Source: Myxococcales bacterium
GTDB taxonomy: Bacteria > Myxococcota > Myxococcia > Myxococcales > Myxococcaceae
Assembly: GCA_030696265.1 (NCBI GenBank)
Contig: JAUYSO010000017.1
Span: 72,368 to 136,367 of the forward strand
Length of the DNA: 64,000 nucleotides
Direction: 5' to 3'
Below the pieces are notes generated by a model. The model had not been told where the DNA came from, made no database searches, and was given only the letters and a program-made list of their open reading frames with translations. Each line of letters opens with the position of its first letter. Positions within the stretch are counted from its first letter, which is position 1. Positions 3,082 through 53,455 of this stretch are shown in pieces. The translations under genes were made by a program, and so were the position numbers.

Positions 3082-4186
3082 AGATGAAACGCCGAGCCTT
3101 TCCCCGGCCCTTCGCTCTCGGCCACCAGGTCTCCGCCCATCGCGCGCGCGAGCTGCCGCGACAAGTGCAGGCCCAGGCCGCTGCCATGCGTGACGCCTTC
3201 GCCTGACGACGCGCGCTCGACCTCGAACAACCGCTCCGCGTCTGCAGGCACGAAGCCGCGACCCGAGTCGGCGATCGAGATGCGCAGCCGTTCACCTTCG
3301 GCGACGCTGGTGACGGTCGTCTTCGCGCCGCCGTATTTGCGCGCGTTGTCGAAGAGGTTCTCGAGCACCACCCGCACGGCGTCGCGGTCCGCGCGCACCA
3401 GGCAGCTCTCGAGATCGCCGATGCGCACCTCTTCGCCGACGTGCGCGGTGCGCCGATGGTCGACGATGTTCAGCACCAGGCTCATCGCGTCTTCCTGGCC
3501 GAGCGCGCGCGGGTCGATGGCGCGGCTGCGCTGCAACACCAGCATCGAGTCGGTGAGGTGCTCGAGCGAGTCACACGCCTGGAGCCCGTGGTCGAGCAAC
3601 CGGGCCTGCGCGTCGGCCGGCACCTTGCCTGCTTTGAGCGCCTCGAGCAGCGCCTTGAGGCCCGCGACCGGCGTCTTGAACTCGTGGCCGGTGAACTGGA
3701 GCAGCCGCGCCATCTGCTGCGTGCGCCGCTGACGCTCCTGCGCGACGAGCCACAGCCCGATCACGAGCGCGACCAGCATCGACGCCAGCACCGCCGACTC
3801 GCCGACGATCATCAGCTCGAGCCGCTGCGCCCGCTCCAGCGCCTGCTCGGGCGGCATCACGGCGACCTGCTCCTGCAGCTGCAGGTTCTCGCCGATGAGC
3901 CGGCGACTGAAGACGTTCCACCAGCTGATGAGCACCCCGATGACCGCCAGCGCTCCGAGCAGAAGCGCGATGTCGAGCCATTGGACCTGCCGTCTGGAGG
4001 CCATGGATGCGGAGGTAGCGCCGGGTCTCCGAGGGAGTGTCATGTGTTCGTCAGAGGTCCGGCCTGAAGGTTGCTGAGTCGTCCAGTCGACCTCTACCCC
4101 AACTGTCTTTCCGATGGCTTGGGTCGTGGCGCTGACTGGCATTCACACCGTGCCAGTCAGTTTTGACAAGCTGACCGGGAGAGCCC

Positions 4187-5599
4187 ATGACCGAGGCGCG
4201 AATGAGCCGTGAGATTACGCGAGAGCTGCGGGTGTTGACCGACGACGACCTGTCGCCCCCGATGATTCGCGCGATGCGCATCGAGCGGCGCGGCCACCCG
4301 GCCCTCGTGCTGCCGCTGTACCCTGACGTCGAGTACGTCTTCGGCCGCAGCGGCGACTCGAGCGTGGTGTTCAGCGACGACGCGGTGTCTCGTCAGCACG
4401 GCCGGCTGTGGTGTGACGCGCAGCTTCGGTGGGTGTACCGCGATCTCTCCTCGAGCAACGGCAGCTTCCGCACGCCGAAGGGCCGGCCCGACGTGATGCT
4501 CGAGCTGCGCGGCTCGACGCCCGTGGGGTTGTCGGTCGGCGACGCGCTGCTGCTGGGCACCGAGCGGTCGCGCATCGTGCTGCTCGAGACGGCGCCAGTC
4601 AGAGAAGGCCGCGCGGTGCAGCAGTCGGCGCTCCAGTCGGAGGCCGCCCGTGCGCTCGAGGCGCGCGTGCAGATCGTCGCGCATCACCAACTGCCCGTCG
4701 TGCTCTTCGGCGCCTCTGGCACGGGGAAGACCTTCACCGCACGGCGCATTCACGAGCTGTCGGGGTGTGCCGGGCCCTTCATCCTCGTCAACTGCGGCCG
4801 GTTGCCACGTGACGTCGCCGCGCTGCAGAGCGAGCTGCTCGGTCACGTGAAGGGCGCGTACACCGGCGCAACGGGAGAGCGCCCCGGCAAGTTCTTCGCG
4901 GCGTCGAACGGCACGCTGTTCCTCGACGAGGTCGAGTCGCTGCCGCGCGAAGCGCAGGACTTTCTCATCGACGTGCTCGAGGGCACGGGGGCCTTCGCGC
5001 CGTTGGGCGCAGCGGCCGATGACCGGCCCGAGGCCCCGCGCTTCCGGCTCATCTCGGCCTCGAAGACGCCGCTGCGACAGACGACGCTCCGGCCCGACCT
5101 CGTCGAGCGCCTGCTCGGCGACCCGCTCACCATCCCATCGCTCGACCAGCGCCGGGAAGACATCGCGACGCTCGTCGCCCAGTTCCTCGCCAACCTGCGC
5201 ACCAAGCAGAACATCGACGCTGAGGTGACCCCCGAAGGCCTCGCGCTGCTGCAGACCCGGGGCTGGCCGGGACAGATTCGTGAGCTCGAGCGAGTCATCA
5301 ACGTCACCGCGCAGCGGCTCGCGGCCGAGCGGCGCGCGCACGGGCTCGACACCGAGCGGCTCACCATCGGCGTCGAGGCGCTCCGGAAGCACCTCGAGGA
5401 GCAGGAGCAGGTGCTCGGCGAGTCGAACACCGAGGTCGCGCCCACCTCGCAGTTCGCCGCCATTCGCAAGCGGCCGGCCGATCTCACCCGAGACGAAGTC
5501 GCCGCCGCAGTCGCCGCACATGGTGGGAACAAGACCCACGCCGCCGAGGCGCTCGGCATCGCGCTCAACACGCTCAAGAAGAAGCTGAAGCAGGAGTGA
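4187..5599 (+). CDS. Sigma-54-dependent transcriptional activator with an N-terminal FHA domain and a C-terminal Fis-type HTH
   Basis: FHA-like region (FGRSGDSSVVFSDDAVSRQHGRLW). AAA+ sigma-54 interaction domain with Walker A GASGTGKT, the GAYTGA loop (sigma-54 contact GAFTGA variant) and GWPGQIRELE. C-terminal HTH (HGGNKTHAAEALGIALNTLKKKLK). Divergent from the two-component pair. Confidence 0.9.
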   Translation: MTEARMSREITRELRVLTDDDLSPPMIRAMRIERRGHPALVLPLYPDVEYVFGRSGDSSVVFSDDAVSRQHGRLWCDAQLRWVYRDLSSSNGSFRTPKGRPDVMLELRGSTPVGLSVGDALLLGTERSRIVLLETAPVREGRAVQQSALQSEAARALEARVQIVAHHQLPVVLFGASGTGKTFTARRIHELSGCAGPFILVNCGRLPRDVAALQSELLGHVKGAYTGATGERPGKFFAASNGTLFLDEVESLPREAQDFLIDVLEGTGAFAPLGAAADDRPEAPRFRLISASKTPLRQTTLRPDLVERLLGDPLTIPSLDQRREDIATLVAQFLANLRTKQNIDAEVTPEGLALLQTRGWPGQIRELERVINVTAQRLAAERRAHGLDTERLTIGVEALRKHLEEQEQVLGESNTEVAPTSQFAAIRKRPADLTRDEVAAAVAAHGGNKTHAAEALGIALNTLKKKLKQE

Positions 5600-27237: not shown

Positions 27238-28638
27238 ATGGCCCGAAACACGACGTACGACGAGCTCGTCATCGGCGCGACCGCGTCGATTCAACGACAG
27301 GTGACCGCGAATGACCTCTGGGTCTTCGCGAGCGCGAGCGGCAACTCGAACCCGCTGGTGCTGCCGACCTTCGACTCCGATGGAGACGGCAAGAGTGACG
27401 CCGTGGCGCCCGCCTTGTGGGCCGGCGCGCAGGTCTCGGCAGTGCTCGGCAATCGGCTCCCCGGCCCGGGGACGCGCTACCTCGCCCAGAACTTCCGCTT
27501 CCCCGACCGCGCGCGCGTCGGCGACACCGTCACGGCGAAGGTCACGGTGAAGGCGAAACACGGTGATGGCCGCGTCACCTTCGACACCCAGGTCACCACG
27601 GCCGACGGCCGGGTCGTCGCCGTAGGAGAGGCCGAAGTGACGGCGCCCTCGACGCGCATCGAGGTCTCCGATGACGAGCTGCCCGCCATCACCGTCGTGC
27701 GTCACCAGCACATCGAGCGGCTGATGAAGGCGTGCGAGCCGCTCGAGCCGCTGGCGACCGCGGTGGTGTGCCCTGAAGACGACGCGTCGCTCGGCGGGGC
27801 ACTGCTCAGCTTCAAGCACGAGCTGATCCGGCCGGTGCTGATTGGTGACGTGGCGAAGATTCGCGCGGTGGCGAAGAACCTCGGCGCCTCGCTCGAGGGG
27901 CTCGAGCTGATCGAGGCCCTGGGCCCGATCGCTGCCGCCGAGAAGGCCGTCTCGCTCGCGAACCAGGGCGTGGTGCAGGCCGTCATGAAGGGCAAGCTCC
28001 ACACCGACGAGCTGCTCAAGCCCATGGTGCGCAAAGACGGCGGGCTGCGAGGGGTGCGCCGCATCAGCCACGTCTTCGTGATGGACGTGCCGGGCCTGCC
28101 CGAGCTGCTGCTCGTCACCGACGCCGCCATCAACATCGCGCCGACGCTCGAAGAGAAGGTCGACATCGTGCAGAACGCCATCTTCCTCGCGCAGGCGCTG
28201 GGCTTCACGCAGCCCAAAGTGGGCGTGCTGTCGGCGGTGGAGATCGTCAACCCCGCGATGCAGTCGACCCTCGACGCGGCGGTGCTGTCGAAGATGGCGG
28301 AGCGCGGGCAGATCGTCGGCGGCATCGTCGACGGCCCCCTCGCGATGGACAACGCGTTGTCGCTCAAAGCCGCGCGCACCAAGGGCATCACGTCACTCGT
28401 CGCAGGCCGCGCGAACGTCTTGATGGTGCCGAACATCGAGGCGGGCAACATGCTGGCGAAGGAGCTCGCCTTCGTGGCGCACGCGGAAGGCCCCGGGCTG
28501 GTGGTGGGCGCGAAGGTGCCCATCATGCTCACCAGCCGCGCCGACGACGACAGCACCCGCCTCGCGAGCTGCGCCGTCGCCGTGCTCGAGGCCCACTTCC
28601 GCCGGACCGGGAAGTCGGCGGTGCCTCCGACGCCATGA
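27238..28638 (+). CDS. MaoC-like (hotdog) dehydratase domain fused to phosphate acetyl/butyryl-transferase
   Basis: N-terminal about 150 aa hotdog-like region. C-terminal Pta/Ptb domain (MVPNIEAGNMLAKEL, SRADD). 466 aa. Confidence 0.8.
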   Translation: MARNTTYDELVIGATASIQRQVTANDLWVFASASGNSNPLVLPTFDSDGDGKSDAVAPALWAGAQVSAVLGNRLPGPGTRYLAQNFRFPDRARVGDTVTAKVTVKAKHGDGRVTFDTQVTTADGRVVAVGEAEVTAPSTRIEVSDDELPAITVVRHQHIERLMKACEPLEPLATAVVCPEDDASLGGALLSFKHELIRPVLIGDVAKIRAVAKNLGASLEGLELIEALGPIAAAEKAVSLANQGVVQAVMKGKLHTDELLKPMVRKDGGLRGVRRISHVFVMDVPGLPELLLVTDAAINIAPTLEEKVDIVQNAIFLAQALGFTQPKVGVLSAVEIVNPAMQSTLDAAVLSKMAERGQIVGGIVDGPLAMDNALSLKAARTKGITSLVAGRANVLMVPNIEAGNMLAKELAFVAHAEGPGLVVGAKVPIMLTSRADDDSTRLASCAVAVLEAHFRRTGKSAVPPTP

Positions 28639-29723
28639 CGCCCGCGATTCTCACGCTCAACGCGGGCAGCTCGACGGTGAAGTACGCGCTGTTCTCTGGC
28701 GATGGGGTCACCGAGCTCACCCGCGGCACCATCGAAGAGACGGGCGCAGTGGCGATGGCGAAGGCGCTCGAGGTGACGAAGGCGGCAGGCGTCACGGTCG
28801 TCGGGGTCGGTCACCGCGTCGTGCACGGCGGCACGCGCTTCTCGGCGCCGGTCCTCATCGATGACGAGGCGCTGGGCCTGCTCGAGGGTTTCGTGCCGCT
28901 CGCGCCGCTCCATCAGCCGCACAACGTCTCGGGCATCAAGGCCGCGCGCGCCGCGTTTCAGGGCGTGCGGCAGCTCGCCTGCTTCGACACCGCGTTTCAC
29001 CGCACCCACGACTTCCTCGAAGAGACGTACGCGCTGCCCCGGCGGTACTACGACGACGGCATCAGGCGCTTCGGCTTTCACGGGCTCTCGTACCAGTTCA
29101 TCGCGACGCGGCTGCGCGAGCTCGCCCCAGAGGTCGCCGCCGGGAAGGTCGTCGTCGCGCACCTCGGGAGCGGCGCGTCGATGTGCGCCATGTCGAACGG
29201 GCGCAGCGTCGCGACGACGATGGGCTTCTCGACCATCGACGGCCTTCCGATGGGCACCCGCACGGGCACCATCGACCCCGGCGTGCTGCTCTACCTGCTC
29301 AACCAGAAGGGCATGACCCTCGGAGCACTCGAGGCGCTGCTCTACAAGGAGTCGGGGTTGAAGGGACTCTCTGGCGTGTCCAACGACATGCGCACCCTGC
29401 TCGCGACGGACACGCAGGAAGCCAGAGACGCGGTGGAGTACTTCGTCAGGCGTTGCGCTCGCGAGGTGGCGTCACTCGCGACGGCCCTCGGAGGCCTCGA
29501 TGCGGTCGTCTTCACCGCCGGCATCGGCGAGCGCTCCGCGGTGATTCGCGCGCGCATCGTGGGACACCTCGCGTGGCTGGGCCTGTCGATCGACGAAGCG
29601 GCCAACACGTCGAACGCGCTCGTCATCTCGACGCCGTCGTCGCGCGCGAAGGTGCTGGTGGTGCCGACGAACGAAGAGCGGTGCATCGCCGAAGCCGTGG
29701 CGCGGTTGGCTCAGCCCGGCTGA
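28635..29723 (+). CDS. ackA: Acetate/propionate kinase
   Basis: N-terminus ILTLNAGSSTVKYALF; VGHRVVHGG; AHLGSGASMCA; GFSTIDGLPMGTRTGTIDPG. ATGA overlap with the pta-like gene. Confidence 0.85.
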   Translation: MTPAILTLNAGSSTVKYALFSGDGVTELTRGTIEETGAVAMAKALEVTKAAGVTVVGVGHRVVHGGTRFSAPVLIDDEALGLLEGFVPLAPLHQPHNVSGIKAARAAFQGVRQLACFDTAFHRTHDFLEETYALPRRYYDDGIRRFGFHGLSYQFIATRLRELAPEVAAGKVVVAHLGSGASMCAMSNGRSVATTMGFSTIDGLPMGTRTGTIDPGVLLYLLNQKGMTLGALEALLYKESGLKGLSGVSNDMRTLLATDTQEARDAVEYFVRRCAREVASLATALGGLDAVVFTAGIGERSAVIRARIVGHLAWLGLSIDEAANTSNALVISTPSSRAKVLVVPTNEERCIAEAVARLAQPG

Positions 29724-30232
29724 ACCGTGAGGTTCAGGAAGAAGAGCGTGCGGCTCAGGCGCTCCAGGGCGGCCGTCGCCTCTTCGCCCAGCAGGCCTGC
29801 GGCGGCCTGCGCGCGGGCGAGGGCGAGCGCGTGCACCTCGTCCTCGAAGCCCATCACCTCGGCGAGCCGGCGGCGACGCGCGAGCGCTTCATTCACCAGC
29901 TCCTGCGCTTCATCCTCGGTGAGCTCGCCCGCCTCGAGCTGCTCGAGCGCGAGGCAGCGGAACTTCCGGCACACCGCTGGGCGGTCTTCGTAGACGCCGC
30001 ACTTCCGCTCCGAGAGCGCGCGACACGGCTGCACGAGCGAGCCGTCTTCTTCCGAGAGCCGCACCCGCGCTCCCAGCCGGGCGCCTTCACCGGGCTCGAG
30101 CGGGACTCGACGAAACAGCGTGCCGTCACAACAGAGGCCACAGCTCAGACACAGCGACACGATGGACCTCCACGCCAGTCGAGAATGATGGACCATGCCG
30201 GACAACGCGCTCGGTTGCTGCAGCGCTTCCAC
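29711..30232 (-). CDS. YkgJ-family cysteine-cluster protein (UPF0153)
   Basis: CLSCGLCCDGTLF plus downstream CRALSERKCGVYEDRPAVCRKFRC, typical of UPF0153. The true start may be the internal ATG (MVHHS). Confidence 0.65.
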   Translation of the reverse strand: MEALQQPSALSGMVHHSRLAWRSIVSLCLSCGLCCDGTLFRRVPLEPGEGARLGARVRLSEEDGSLVQPCRALSERKCGVYEDRPAVCRKFRCLALEQLEAGELTEDEAQELVNEALARRRRLAEVMGFEDEVHALALARAQAAAGLLGEEATAALERLSRTLFFLNLTVQPG

Positions 30233-30373
30233 GGGCGCGATGCCGCGCCGACCCGTGACAGACCTGTCAGAGAATCGGGCGTTGGGCTCGTGCGGTTCGA
30301 GTCAACCAATCGGGTTTTCGACGACGCCTCTGTCGGCCTTCGTGCTGGCGCGCCGTTTGCTCGAAGGCCGCTC

Positions 30374-30871
30374 ATGCGCTTCGCACCCTTCTTCATCTTC
30401 CTGCCGGTCCTCGCCACGGCCTGCCTCTCTCCCCGCTTCGGCGAGTGCCTCGGCAACGCCATCGGAACCTCCATTGGGGGCGCCATTGGCGCTCGCCTCG
30501 GAGAGTCCTTCGCAGCGGTGACTGGAGGGCGCGGTAACCCCAACGCCCCAGACGTCGCGCGCGTCGTCGACGGTGGCACCTTTGTCTCCGTCACGCATGA
30601 AGGCGGTCGCCTCGAGCTTCAGTTCACGACGGGCCTTCGGCCTGGGGTGCTCCCTCGCTACGACCCTGACTGCAGCCTGACCGACCTCGCCCTGTTTCAC
30701 GACGCCGATGGAGGCCTGGCGACCGTGAAGCTGAACGTCACCACGGCGAGCGCGCAACCGGTCGACGGCGGCACGCGAGTGCAGCTCACCTGTACAGCCA
30801 TCGAGCGCCGCGTGCCGGACGGAGGCTTCGAGCCGATGAGCGACCGGGCCATCGACGTCGTCGCGCCCTGA
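30374..30871 (+). CDS. Hypothetical lipoprotein
   Basis: MRFAPFFIFLPVLATACLS (lipobox). 165 aa. High GC3. This is the C-terminal in-frame part of the long ORF-track entry 29183..30871, whose upstream part is spurious. Confidence 0.6.
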   Translation: MRFAPFFIFLPVLATACLSPRFGECLGNAIGTSIGGAIGARLGESFAAVTGGRGNPNAPDVARVVDGGTFVSVTHEGGRLELQFTTGLRPGVLPRYDPDCSLTDLALFHDADGGLATVKLNVTTASAQPVDGGTRVQLTCTAIERRVPDGGFEPMSDRAIDVVAP

Positions 30872-30957
30872 GCGCTCCGGTCTGGAGCGCCTGGTCTCTG
30901 GCTTTGCGCCGTCGTGGCGCAGCGCGCTGACAACCCCGCGCAGTCGGTGGCTCCGCA

Positions 30958-30976
30958 GCTGGCACCCGACTCGCAC
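30958..30976 (+). promoter_or_regulatory. Candidate sigma-54 (-24/-12) promoter upstream of the MVP-like gene
   Basis: CTGGCACccgacTCGCA at 30959-30975 matches TGGCAC-N5-TTGCA with one mismatch in the -12 element. It lies 38 nt upstream of the ATG at 31014. Confidence 0.45.
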
Positions 30977-31013
30977 AGCTCCCCTGCACCACTCGCAGCA
31001 CGGGAGCACCACC

Positions 31014-52030: not shown

Positions 52031-53455
52031 GTGCGCATGGCGGAGCTCGACCTCGACGCGCTGTCCCGGCACCCGGTGGTTCGGAAGCTGACCGAGAAGG
52101 TGAAGGACAGCCTGGGCCTGACGTTCCTGTTCGTCTCTCCGAAGGCGCGGGTCGAGGGCATTCCGTCGGGGCAGTACATGCCGACGAACAACGCGCTGTG
52201 TACGCGCATCTGCACCGACCGGAAGAAGGGCATGAAGGCGTGCCTGTCGGCGGGCACCGCGCTGTTCGCGGCGAAGCGGCTGTCGTCGGGCGACTTCACG
52301 CAGAAGCCCTGTCACATCGGCCTGCAGACCCTCGGAGCGCCCATCGTCGTCGACGGCCAGTTCCTCGGCGTCATCGCCACCTGCGGCTTCATGCGCGCCG
52401 AGCACGTCTTCGAAGAAGAACAGGCCGTCGCCCATCGCGCGGCACGGCAAGGCTGGGCGCCGGGCTTCGACGAGGCGCTCTCGCAGCTCCGTCAGACGCC
52501 ATCACTCAACGTGCGCGAGGTGCGCATCGCCGCCGACCTGATGCAGCTGCTCGTCGAGCAGCTCATTCACTTCTCGCGCTCGAGCGAAGCCGACGCCGAG
52601 GCCTTGCAGCGCGCGTGGCAGGCGCTCGAGGTGTCGTGTCCCGAGTCGCCGCTCATCGGAGACTCCGAGGCGATGCGGGCGGTCGCCGCCGTGGTGGAGC
52701 GCTCTGCCTCCAAGCGCCTCCCGACGCTCATCAGCGGCCCGCAAGGCGCGGGCGCGACGCACCTGTCTCGGCACCTGCACCGCGCTGGAGGTTTTCTGCG
52801 CACGCCCTTCGTCAGCCTCGAGGCGCGCGACGGCGTGACGACCGTGAAGGGGCTCTTGCGCAAGGGCTTCACCGGCACGCTGGTGCTCGAGCACCTCGAG
52901 CGCGCGTCCGCCTCCACCGTCGACGAACTGGTCGAGCTGATGCGCACCAGGCCCGACGTGTTCTGGGTCAGCACCACGCGCGGGCCGCTCGAGCCGAACG
53001 TCGCCGCGGCCGTGGGCGTCGTGCAGGTGACGCTGCCTCCGTTGAGCGCGCGCCCGCAAGACGTGGCGGCGCTGGCCGACTCGCTCATCTCGAAGCTGGG
53101 AACGTCTCTCACCGTCTCGCCCTCGGTGCTTTCGGCGCTCGAGCGGTACGGCTGGCCCGGCAACGTCGCCGAGCTCGAGGCCGTGCTCCGGCGCGCGCTC
53201 GCGCTTGGAGGGCTGTCGCTCGCGCACCTGCCGAGGGAGCTCGCCATTCTCTCGGCCCGCACGCGGCGCCGCGCCGGGTTTCATGACGAGGTGCTGCAGT
53301 TCAAGACCGAGCTGGTCGCCGAGACGCTCCAGCGCACCAACGGCAACGTCAGCCAGGCCGCGCGCGAGCTGGGCCTGCAGCGCACGTATCTGCACCGGCT
53401 GATGAACGAGCTCGGCGTGCACCCGCAGCGTGAAGAGAAGGTCGCTCCGAGCTGA
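52031..53455 (+). CDS. PocR-sensor domain plus degenerate sigma-54-activator-like AAA+ domain plus Fis-type HTH regulator
   Basis: N-terminal PocR-like region (Cys-containing, GLTFLFVSPK...CTRIC). Central domain with atypical Walker A GPQGAGAT and GWPGNVAELE, but no GAFTGA loop. C-terminal HTH (NGNVSQAARELGLQRTYLHRLM). Confidence 0.7.
   Translation: MRMAELDLDALSRHPVVRKLTEKVKDSLGLTFLFVSPKARVEGIPSGQYMPTNNALCTRICTDRKKGMKACLSAGTALFAAKRLSSGDFTQKPCHIGLQTLGAPIVVDGQFLGVIATCGFMRAEHVFEEEQAVAHRAARQGWAPGFDEALSQLRQTPSLNVREVRIAADLMQLLVEQLIHFSRSSEADAEALQRAWQALEVSCPESPLIGDSEAMRAVAAVVERSASKRLPTLISGPQGAGATHLSRHLHRAGGFLRTPFVSLEARDGVTTVKGLLRKGFTGTLVLEHLERASASTVDELVELMRTRPDVFWVSTTRGPLEPNVAAAVGVVQVTLPPLSARPQDVAALADSLISKLGTSLTVSPSVLSALERYGWPGNVAELEAVLRRALALGGLSLAHLPRELAILSARTRRRAGFHDEVLQFKTELVAETLQRTNGNVSQAARELGLQRTYLHRLMNELGVHPQREEKVAPS

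Follow-up and report, generated by a model that had tools for sequence, protein, structure and literature searches.

In enteric bacteria the NtrC site reads TGCACCA-N3-TGGTGCA, and at promoters of the glnAp2 type such sites stand at -108 and -140. Among the myxobacteria it is Myxococcus from which the tie of the sigma-54 regulon to development and stress is known. Myxococcus also offers a precedent for sigma-54 promoters with several dyad upstream activating sequences (UASs) within ~100 bp (PMC11841059, PMC12754779). The NmpR promoters of Myxococcus xanthus (mxan_4236 and pilR) consist of a sigma-54 site and two dyad enhancers within ~100 bp, placed between genes and in the orientation of the gene; the enhancer sites have the sequence GCGCA-N5-TGCGC, are 14-15 bp apart, and the NmpR regulon concerns oxygen utilisation (PMC11841059). 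PexR and sigma-54 act on ahpC and katB, where promoter and dyad UASs (CACCG-N6-CGGTG repeats) are found phylum-wide before a stress gene and pexR adjoins its target, and this system is a precedent for the phylum-wide conservation of modules of sigma-54 site and UAS (PMC12754779). Leaderless mRNAs, defined as lacking a Shine-Dalgarno sequence and starting no more than 5 nt ahead of the start codon, have been reported in myxobacteria as well, for a sigma-A promoter (PMC12754779). [quoted passage not shown]

The locus analysed here is part of a 64-kb stretch of DNA, called the window below, and the positions of its features are collected in Table 1. On the evidence of its sequence, the product of the target gene belongs to the same major vault protein family as the homologues described in Myxococcales: its best PDB matches are to the major vault protein (E = 1.2e-29), with residues 198-706 corresponding to residues 293-858 of MVP. 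An independent gene call in L060 agrees with this gene, and an identical protein is present in NCBI as a 'hypothetical protein' of a Myxococcales MAG, which is how the bacterial MVP homologues are annotated. Since the next gene downstream is convergent, the MVP-like gene is monocistronic. On the upstream side the gene order was corrected: a listed ORF of 562 aa (29183-30871), which is made up of ackA in another frame, a CxxCxxCC-family gene read in antisense and a small lipobox ORF, was rejected as a shadow-frame artefact of GC-rich DNA on the basis of GC3 profiles, homology and independent gene calls. As a separate observation on this neighbourhood, Pta has an N-terminal match to a MaoC-like dehydratase, and only the closest relatives (L001, L002, L003 and L005) retain pta-ackA in linkage with the MVP-like gene.

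Table 1. Features of the window around and related to the putative promoter of the MVP-like gene (EBP, enhancer-binding protein)
Feature	Position	Strand	Remarks
Sigma-54 (-24/-12) promoter element TGGCACCCGACTCGCA	30960-30975	+	letters read directly
Predicted transcription start	30985-30987	+	from canonical sigma-54 geometry, ~12 nt past the C of GC (GC = -13/-12)
Shine-Dalgarno sequence GGGAG	31002-31006	+	letters read directly; 7 nt before the ATG
Proximal enhancer (UAS) candidate, 17-bp dyad TGCGCCGTCGTGGCGCA	30905-30921	none	centred at ~-73 from the predicted start
Distal enhancer candidate, perfect palindrome CGCTCCGGTCTGGAGCG	30873-30889	none	centred at ~-105
MVP-like gene	31014-33164	+	716 aa; Pfam MVP_shoulder (3.7e-30) and Vault_3 (3.7e-07)
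Hydrolase gene	33166-34188	-	downstream, convergent
pta-ackA pair	27238-29723	+	directly upstream in the corrected gene order
CxxCxxCC protein gene	29711-30160	-	in the corrected gene order
Lipobox ORF	30374-30871	+	165 aa; lipoprotein signal (…PVLATAC…); also called as a gene in L060
Second sigma-54-like site TGGCGCGCCGTTTGCT	30346-30361	+	one mismatch to the canonical consensus
Palindrome TGACAGACCTGTCA	30256-30269		starts 90 nt upstream of TGGCGCGCCGTTTGCT
EBP1	4187-5599		FHA, Sigma54_activat, AAA_lid and HTH_8 domains (HTH_8 at residues ~420-470)
EBP2	52031-53455	+	PocR, HTH_8 and AAA lid

A near-consensus sigma-54 motif had been placed by the earlier note 38 nt before the start of the MVP-like gene, and direct reading of the letters confirmed it. 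The element TGGCACCCGACTCGCA is located in an intergenic region of 142 nt, on the plus strand and oriented to the MVP-like gene; its GG (30961-30962) and GC (30973-30974) have the exact GG-N10-GC spacing, the gap to the ATG covers 38 nt (30976-31013), and the C of the GC stands 40 nt before the ATG. Compared to TGGCACG-N4-TTGCW, 10 of the 12 specified positions match and both invariant doublets are kept, with a C instead of a T at position -14. Counting both strands, it is the one exact match of the window to TGGCAC-N5-TYGCW, where 0.26 would be expected and 24 of 100 shuffled windows have at least one; the canonical consensus shows no enrichment in the window when two mismatches are allowed (4 found versus 10.7 expected). 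The motif is therefore only modestly unlikely by chance in the window, and the sequence alone is no proof of function. Other sigma-54-like sites in the window, such as those at 3618 (+) and 54370 (-), were not counted as promoters; the latter, although it scores 10/10 on the scale introduced below, falls within the 3' end of an ORF of 702 aa and was set aside as a chance match.

From the predicted transcription start a 5' UTR of ~27-29 nt is predicted for the mRNA of the MVP-like gene; it would contain the GGGAG, and from ~30986 onwards it is unstructured in the fold prediction (z = +1.59). A scan of 30500-33500 for promoters of the sigma-70 type found none. Myxococcota generally carry rpoN, which is essential in Myxococcus xanthus. 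A search for the RpoN box in the 64-kb window gave no hit, and the use of sigma-54 by this lineage is indicated by the window itself, which encodes an EBP with both Walker A and GAYTGA.

The conservation of the element was analysed in 59 loci encoding relatives of the MVP-like protein, one genome per species, with protein identities from 99% to ~50%. These loci are mostly from Myxococcota MAGs, with a few from Planctomycetota and Acidobacteriota and one labelled Clostridia, and all the relatives are uncultured MAGs or metagenome contigs. Sites were scored out of 10 against YGGCAC-N5-T.GCW, where the GG and the GC were required and the site had to be at most 130 nt from the start codon. A motif of at least 9/10 was present in 40 of the 51 Myxococcota loci, the window included, and reached 10/10 in 22, counts that overstate the number of independent events since the loci are phylogenetically related. 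In 200 dinucleotide-preserving shuffles of the same regions only 1.16 +/- 1.09 loci had a motif of at least 9/10 (maximum 6), the opposite strand of these regions had it in no locus, and among control regions taken 467-600 nt upstream it was present in 1 of 50.

The orthologue sites amount to 36 distinct 16-mers. When the closest relatives were aligned, TGGCACC..ACTCGCAC was invariant in surroundings that could barely be aligned, and in an alignment anchored on the motif the information content peaks at the sigma-54 positions only. The conserved columns are YGGCAC, then five variable positions, then T.GCW, among which the GG and the GC are invariant by the construction of the scan. The motif was found neither in three Myxococcota loci (L025-L027) nor in any of the 8 non-myxobacterial loci. 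In two of the Planctomycetota loci, L021 and L029, a pair TTGACG/TTGACC-N17-TAGAGT/TAGATT was noticed by eye in place of the sigma-54 motif, 30-70 nt before the start of the match at 4001; judged from its sequence, this pair seems to be a -35/-10 of the sigma-70 type, and the class of the promoter of the MVP-like gene seems to differ between the phyla.

The N-terminus of the MVP-like orthologues is conserved, MA(E/D)RD.RERDIL, so the start codons are comparable between the loci; in six loci the SD-scoring script had picked an internal GTG as the start, and there the distances were reduced by 15. Two layouts, intermixed over the clades, can be distinguished. In 22 of the 48 myxobacterial loci (L008, L012-L018, L020, L030, L032, L038-L041, L046, L051, L052, L054, L055, L058 and L059; ~30 nt ahead of where the match starts) the C of the GC precedes the A of the ATG by 14-15 nt, which leaves no room for a Shine-Dalgarno sequence. 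The distance is 25-56 nt in the other 26, to which the window belongs with its 40 nt, apart from a single locus at 114, and a GGAG is usually present there. A sequence resembling the Shine-Dalgarno was detected in 23 of 28 'leadered' orthologues versus 3 of 20 'leaderless' ones, these 20 being the members of the 14-15-nt class that were scored.

With the GC at -13/-12, a distance of 14-15 nt to the ATG gives a predicted leader of 2-3 nt, which is leaderless by the definition of at most 5 nt mentioned above, and leaderless sigma-54 transcripts are predicted for the orthologues of this class. Such a fixed distance between promoter and ATG is difficult to account for if the element does not set the point at which transcription begins, and a fixed 14-nt class is a requirement of a promoter making leaderless mRNA. 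For specialists there is the minor point that the same promoter alternates between layouts led by a Shine-Dalgarno sequence and apparently leaderless ones, and a limited literature search turned up no leaderless sigma-54 transcripts.

The leaderless-type spacing recurs within the locus itself. In the second sigma-54-like site, TGGCGCGCCGTTTGCT, the GC is exactly 14 nt before the ATG (30374) of the lipobox ORF. This ORF, together with ~620 bp surrounding it, is missing in L001, the MVP-like protein of which is 99% identical, and no homologue of it was found in any related locus. The unit looks like a strain-specific insertion which brought its own sigma-54 promoter of the leaderless type; if it has such a promoter, the locus would have two promoters in tandem, and transcripts could read through into the MVP-like gene. 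The palindrome TGACAGACCTGTCA was noticed upstream of this second site as well and might serve another EBP as its enhancer, a suggestion resting on one sequence.

Upstream of the promoter element of the MVP-like gene two dyads were recognized as candidate enhancers. The proximal one, TGCGCCGTCGTGGCGCA, is the sole 10/10 match to TGCNCC-N5-GGNGCA in the 64-kb window. The distal one, CGCTCCGGTCTGGAGCG, begins 2 nt past the stop codon of the upstream ORF, and three helical turns (32 bp) separate it from the proximal dyad; it scores 8/10 and is both weaker and less conserved, with 6/10 in the nearest relative, L001 (by eye). In many orthologues second dyad sites are found 21-43 bp from the first. 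A dyad of at least 8/10 is present in 38 of 48 orthologue promoters versus 7.2 +/- 2.3 in shuffles of the same upstream regions, and one of at least 9/10 in 16 of 48 loci versus 0.7. Measured from the -24 element, the dyads gather around offsets of -47, -57, -68, -79 and -89, that is with a periodicity of 10.5-11 bp (Rayleigh R ~0.7, 48 loci). Positions outside the selection are constrained too, position 6 being R in 58 of 64 and position 10 being Y in 59 of 64, and the centre of the dyad is AT-rich (49% against a background of 32%), from which the consensus was refined to YGCNCCR-N3-YGGNGCR. The combination of motif and dyad occurs once in the window and, over ~1 Mb of related loci, is almost confined to the promoter of the MVP-like gene; no further credible combination, which could point to other members of a regulon, was found in the window or in the related loci. 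These data suggest the dyads as candidate enhancer sites of the NtrC type, located on a fixed face of the helix.

The alternative that survives best accepts the sigma-54 promoter and disputes the role of the dyads, which could be the operator of a repressor or a site of the gene upstream or of a divergent one, while the EBP would act from elsewhere or from solution. GC-rich palindromes are common indeed, with a background of 1e-3 per nt at 8/10 or better, the intergenic region serves also the divergent CxxCxxCC gene in close relatives, and 10 of the 48 loci are without a dyad of at least 8/10. However, the dyads are enriched over the shuffles 5-fold at 8/10 and more than 20-fold at 9/10, they persist where the upstream neighbour is a different one, and it is the -24 element, rather than this neighbour, with which they are in phase. 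Furthermore, the architecture equals that of the enteric NtrC site and resembles the tested tandem dyad UASs of NmpR and PexR (PMC11841059, PMC12754779). We consider it unlikely that the dyads are anything but the enhancer of this promoter.

As for the described systems, the locus shares with the enteric NtrC/glnAp2 type the spacing of the -24 GG and -12 GC, the two 17-bp dyads of the form TGCNCC(R)-N3-(Y)GGNGCA and their fixed helical face, and the same strict dependence on an activator is expected here. It differs in that the dyads are closer to the start (~-73 and ~-105), the half-sites are GC-rich variants, and the target is an MVP-like gene instead of nitrogen assimilation, with nothing to indicate nitrogen control. 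With the NmpR promoters it has in common the phylum, the sigma-54 site with two dyad enhancers within ~100 bp and their location between genes in the orientation of the gene; the dyad sequence is another one, the starts of the sites are at multiples of ~10.5 bp instead of 14-15 bp apart, and the MVP-like target is unlike an oxygen utilisation regulon (PMC11841059). The conservation of promoter and dyad UASs over the phylum is shared with PexR, whose repeats differ from the dyads here and whose gene adjoins its target, in contrast to the present locus where no EBP gene is syntenic (PMC12754779). Three known Myxococcus EBP sites were considered as the identity of the dyad and rejected, since those of NmpR (GCGCA-N5-TGCGC), Nla28 (CT(C/G)CG(C/G)AG) and PexR (CACCG-N6-CGGTG) all differ from it.

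If the dyads are an enhancer, an EBP encoded in the window could be the one that binds them. The earlier note had counted two EBPs of the sigma-54 type in the window; both ORFs are found where it placed them, and only one of the two keeps the expected character. In EBP1 the Walker A motif (GASGTGKT) and the loop contacting sigma-54 (GAYTGA) are both intact, and from its sequence the protein looks competent for sigma-54 activation. In EBP2 the match to the Sigma54_activat profile is limited to positions 1-57 of 168, and GPQGAGAT takes the place of Walker A; lacking both the GAFTGA and the Walker-A lysine, the protein is unlikely to be a sigma-54 activator and is probably a degenerate regulator resembling the EBPs.

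That one of these two genes, the FHA-EBP (EBP1) or the PocR-EBP (EBP2), activates the promoter of the MVP-like gene, a link which the earlier note had implied, has in its favour that both are within 27 kb of the promoter and that EBP1 possesses Sigma54_activat, AAA_lid and HTH_8 domains besides Walker A and GAYTGA. Myxobacterial genomes contain some 50 EBP genes each, so proximity on the scale of 27 kb carries little weight. The link found no support in the comparison either: EBP1 is 26 kb and EBP2 21 kb away, and neither is syntenic across the 59 loci, where tblastn with both proteins detected within 4 kb of the MVP-like gene a single match only, to an unrelated EBP in L041. In addition, there is no copy of the dyad of at least 9/10 near either gene, and EBP2 is defective in the two respects described above. 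Activation by one of them is thus very unlikely.

A different kind of objection is that the conserved block binds something other than sigma-54, e.g. another transcription factor or an ECF-type sigma factor, or that it functions as an RNA-level element, and that its likeness to the consensus is coincidental. Conservation alone is silent on which protein binds, and GCTCCC (30978-30983) is complementary to the Shine-Dalgarno region GGGAGC (31002-31007), with similar pairs in several relatives. On the other hand, the conservation falls on precisely the positions of sigma-54 promoters, the block lacks palindromic symmetry, and upstream dyads in helical phase are the signature of enhancer-dependent promoters. 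With respect to RNA, the predicted folds are no better than those of shuffles (z from -1.3 to +1.6), an Rfam search of 30500-31300 at E <= 1 matched no family, and the block reaches to 14 nt from the ATG in 22 loci, where no space is left for a UTR element. The particular hairpin in the 5' UTR between GCTCCC and GGGAGC was rejected as well, on account of its folding and since the anti-Shine-Dalgarno sequence is upstream of the predicted start, so that only read-through transcripts would contain it. On this evidence a function of the block apart from sigma-54 is highly improbable.

It is hardly conceivable that the element is a chance near-consensus 16-mer in GC-rich DNA and the MVP-like gene is transcribed from another, unrecognised promoter: exact matches do turn up in 24 of 100 shuffled windows, the window shows no excess of looser versions of the consensus, and its other sites of 9-10/10 are inside coding regions (e.g. 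54370 (-)), but 40 of 51 orthologue loci against ~1 expected have the motif, on the correct strand only, in diverged flanks, at stereotyped distances from the start codon and together with phased dyads, and 30500-33500 holds no promoter of the sigma-70 type.

It is therefore our view that 30960-30975 is very probably a genuine, functional sigma-54 (RpoN) promoter of the MVP-like gene. The proposal of the earlier note, namely that a sigma-54 promoter serves this gene and that its expression is hence conditional, is supported by what the computational analysis established, i.e. by the motif with its geometry and position, its conservation over the phylum in 40 of 51 loci with diverged flanks, the phased dyads, and the absence of a sigma-70-type promoter; from these we infer the binding of sigma-54, the start site, the identity of the activator as an EBP, and the existence of a signal. 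In the proposed mechanism the sigma-54 holoenzyme would bind the GG (-24) and the GC (-12) of the element and stay in a closed complex, while the two 17-bp dyads, centred ~73 and ~105 bp before the start, would be occupied by dimers of an EBP of the NtrC family. Upon a signal the EBP would oligomerise into an ATPase ring, which might touch sigma-54 by means of a short, phase-dependent DNA loop and so open the promoter. Transcription would then proceed from ~30986, the UTR of ~28 nt would expose the GGGAG, and translation would begin at the ATG at 31014.

Promoter and enhancer are textbook in kind, an ordinary sigma-54 promoter with an enhancer of the NtrC type, and what is new is the target gene; the value of the finding is thus in this target and in a clean comparative signal, and not in a new mechanism. 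To our knowledge, the function of vaults has been unclear ever since their discovery. A sigma-54 promoter that depends on an activator would leave the MVP-like gene off by default and induced by whatever the EBP senses, and its conservation over the myxobacteria suggests that the gene requires a specific signal to be turned on.

A wider reading is possible, if on balance somewhat doubtful: the MVP homologues of Myxococcota may be the core of a dedicated, ancient regulon, in which a single physiological signal would cause one orthologous activator of the NtrC family, acting on YGCNCCR-N3-YGGNGCR dyads, to turn the gene on at its sigma-54 promoter, the mRNA being leaderless in about half of the lineages. 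If this is true, the sensor domain of the activator would reveal the bacterial role of the vault-like protein. Independently of the regulon, a strictly activator-dependent promoter which is conserved together with its enhancer over the phylum would mean that production of the protein is limited to a particular condition. This condition could be found through the EBP that binds the dyads and then through its sensory domain, and in this way the promoter would provide a handle on when the bacterial vault-like protein is made.
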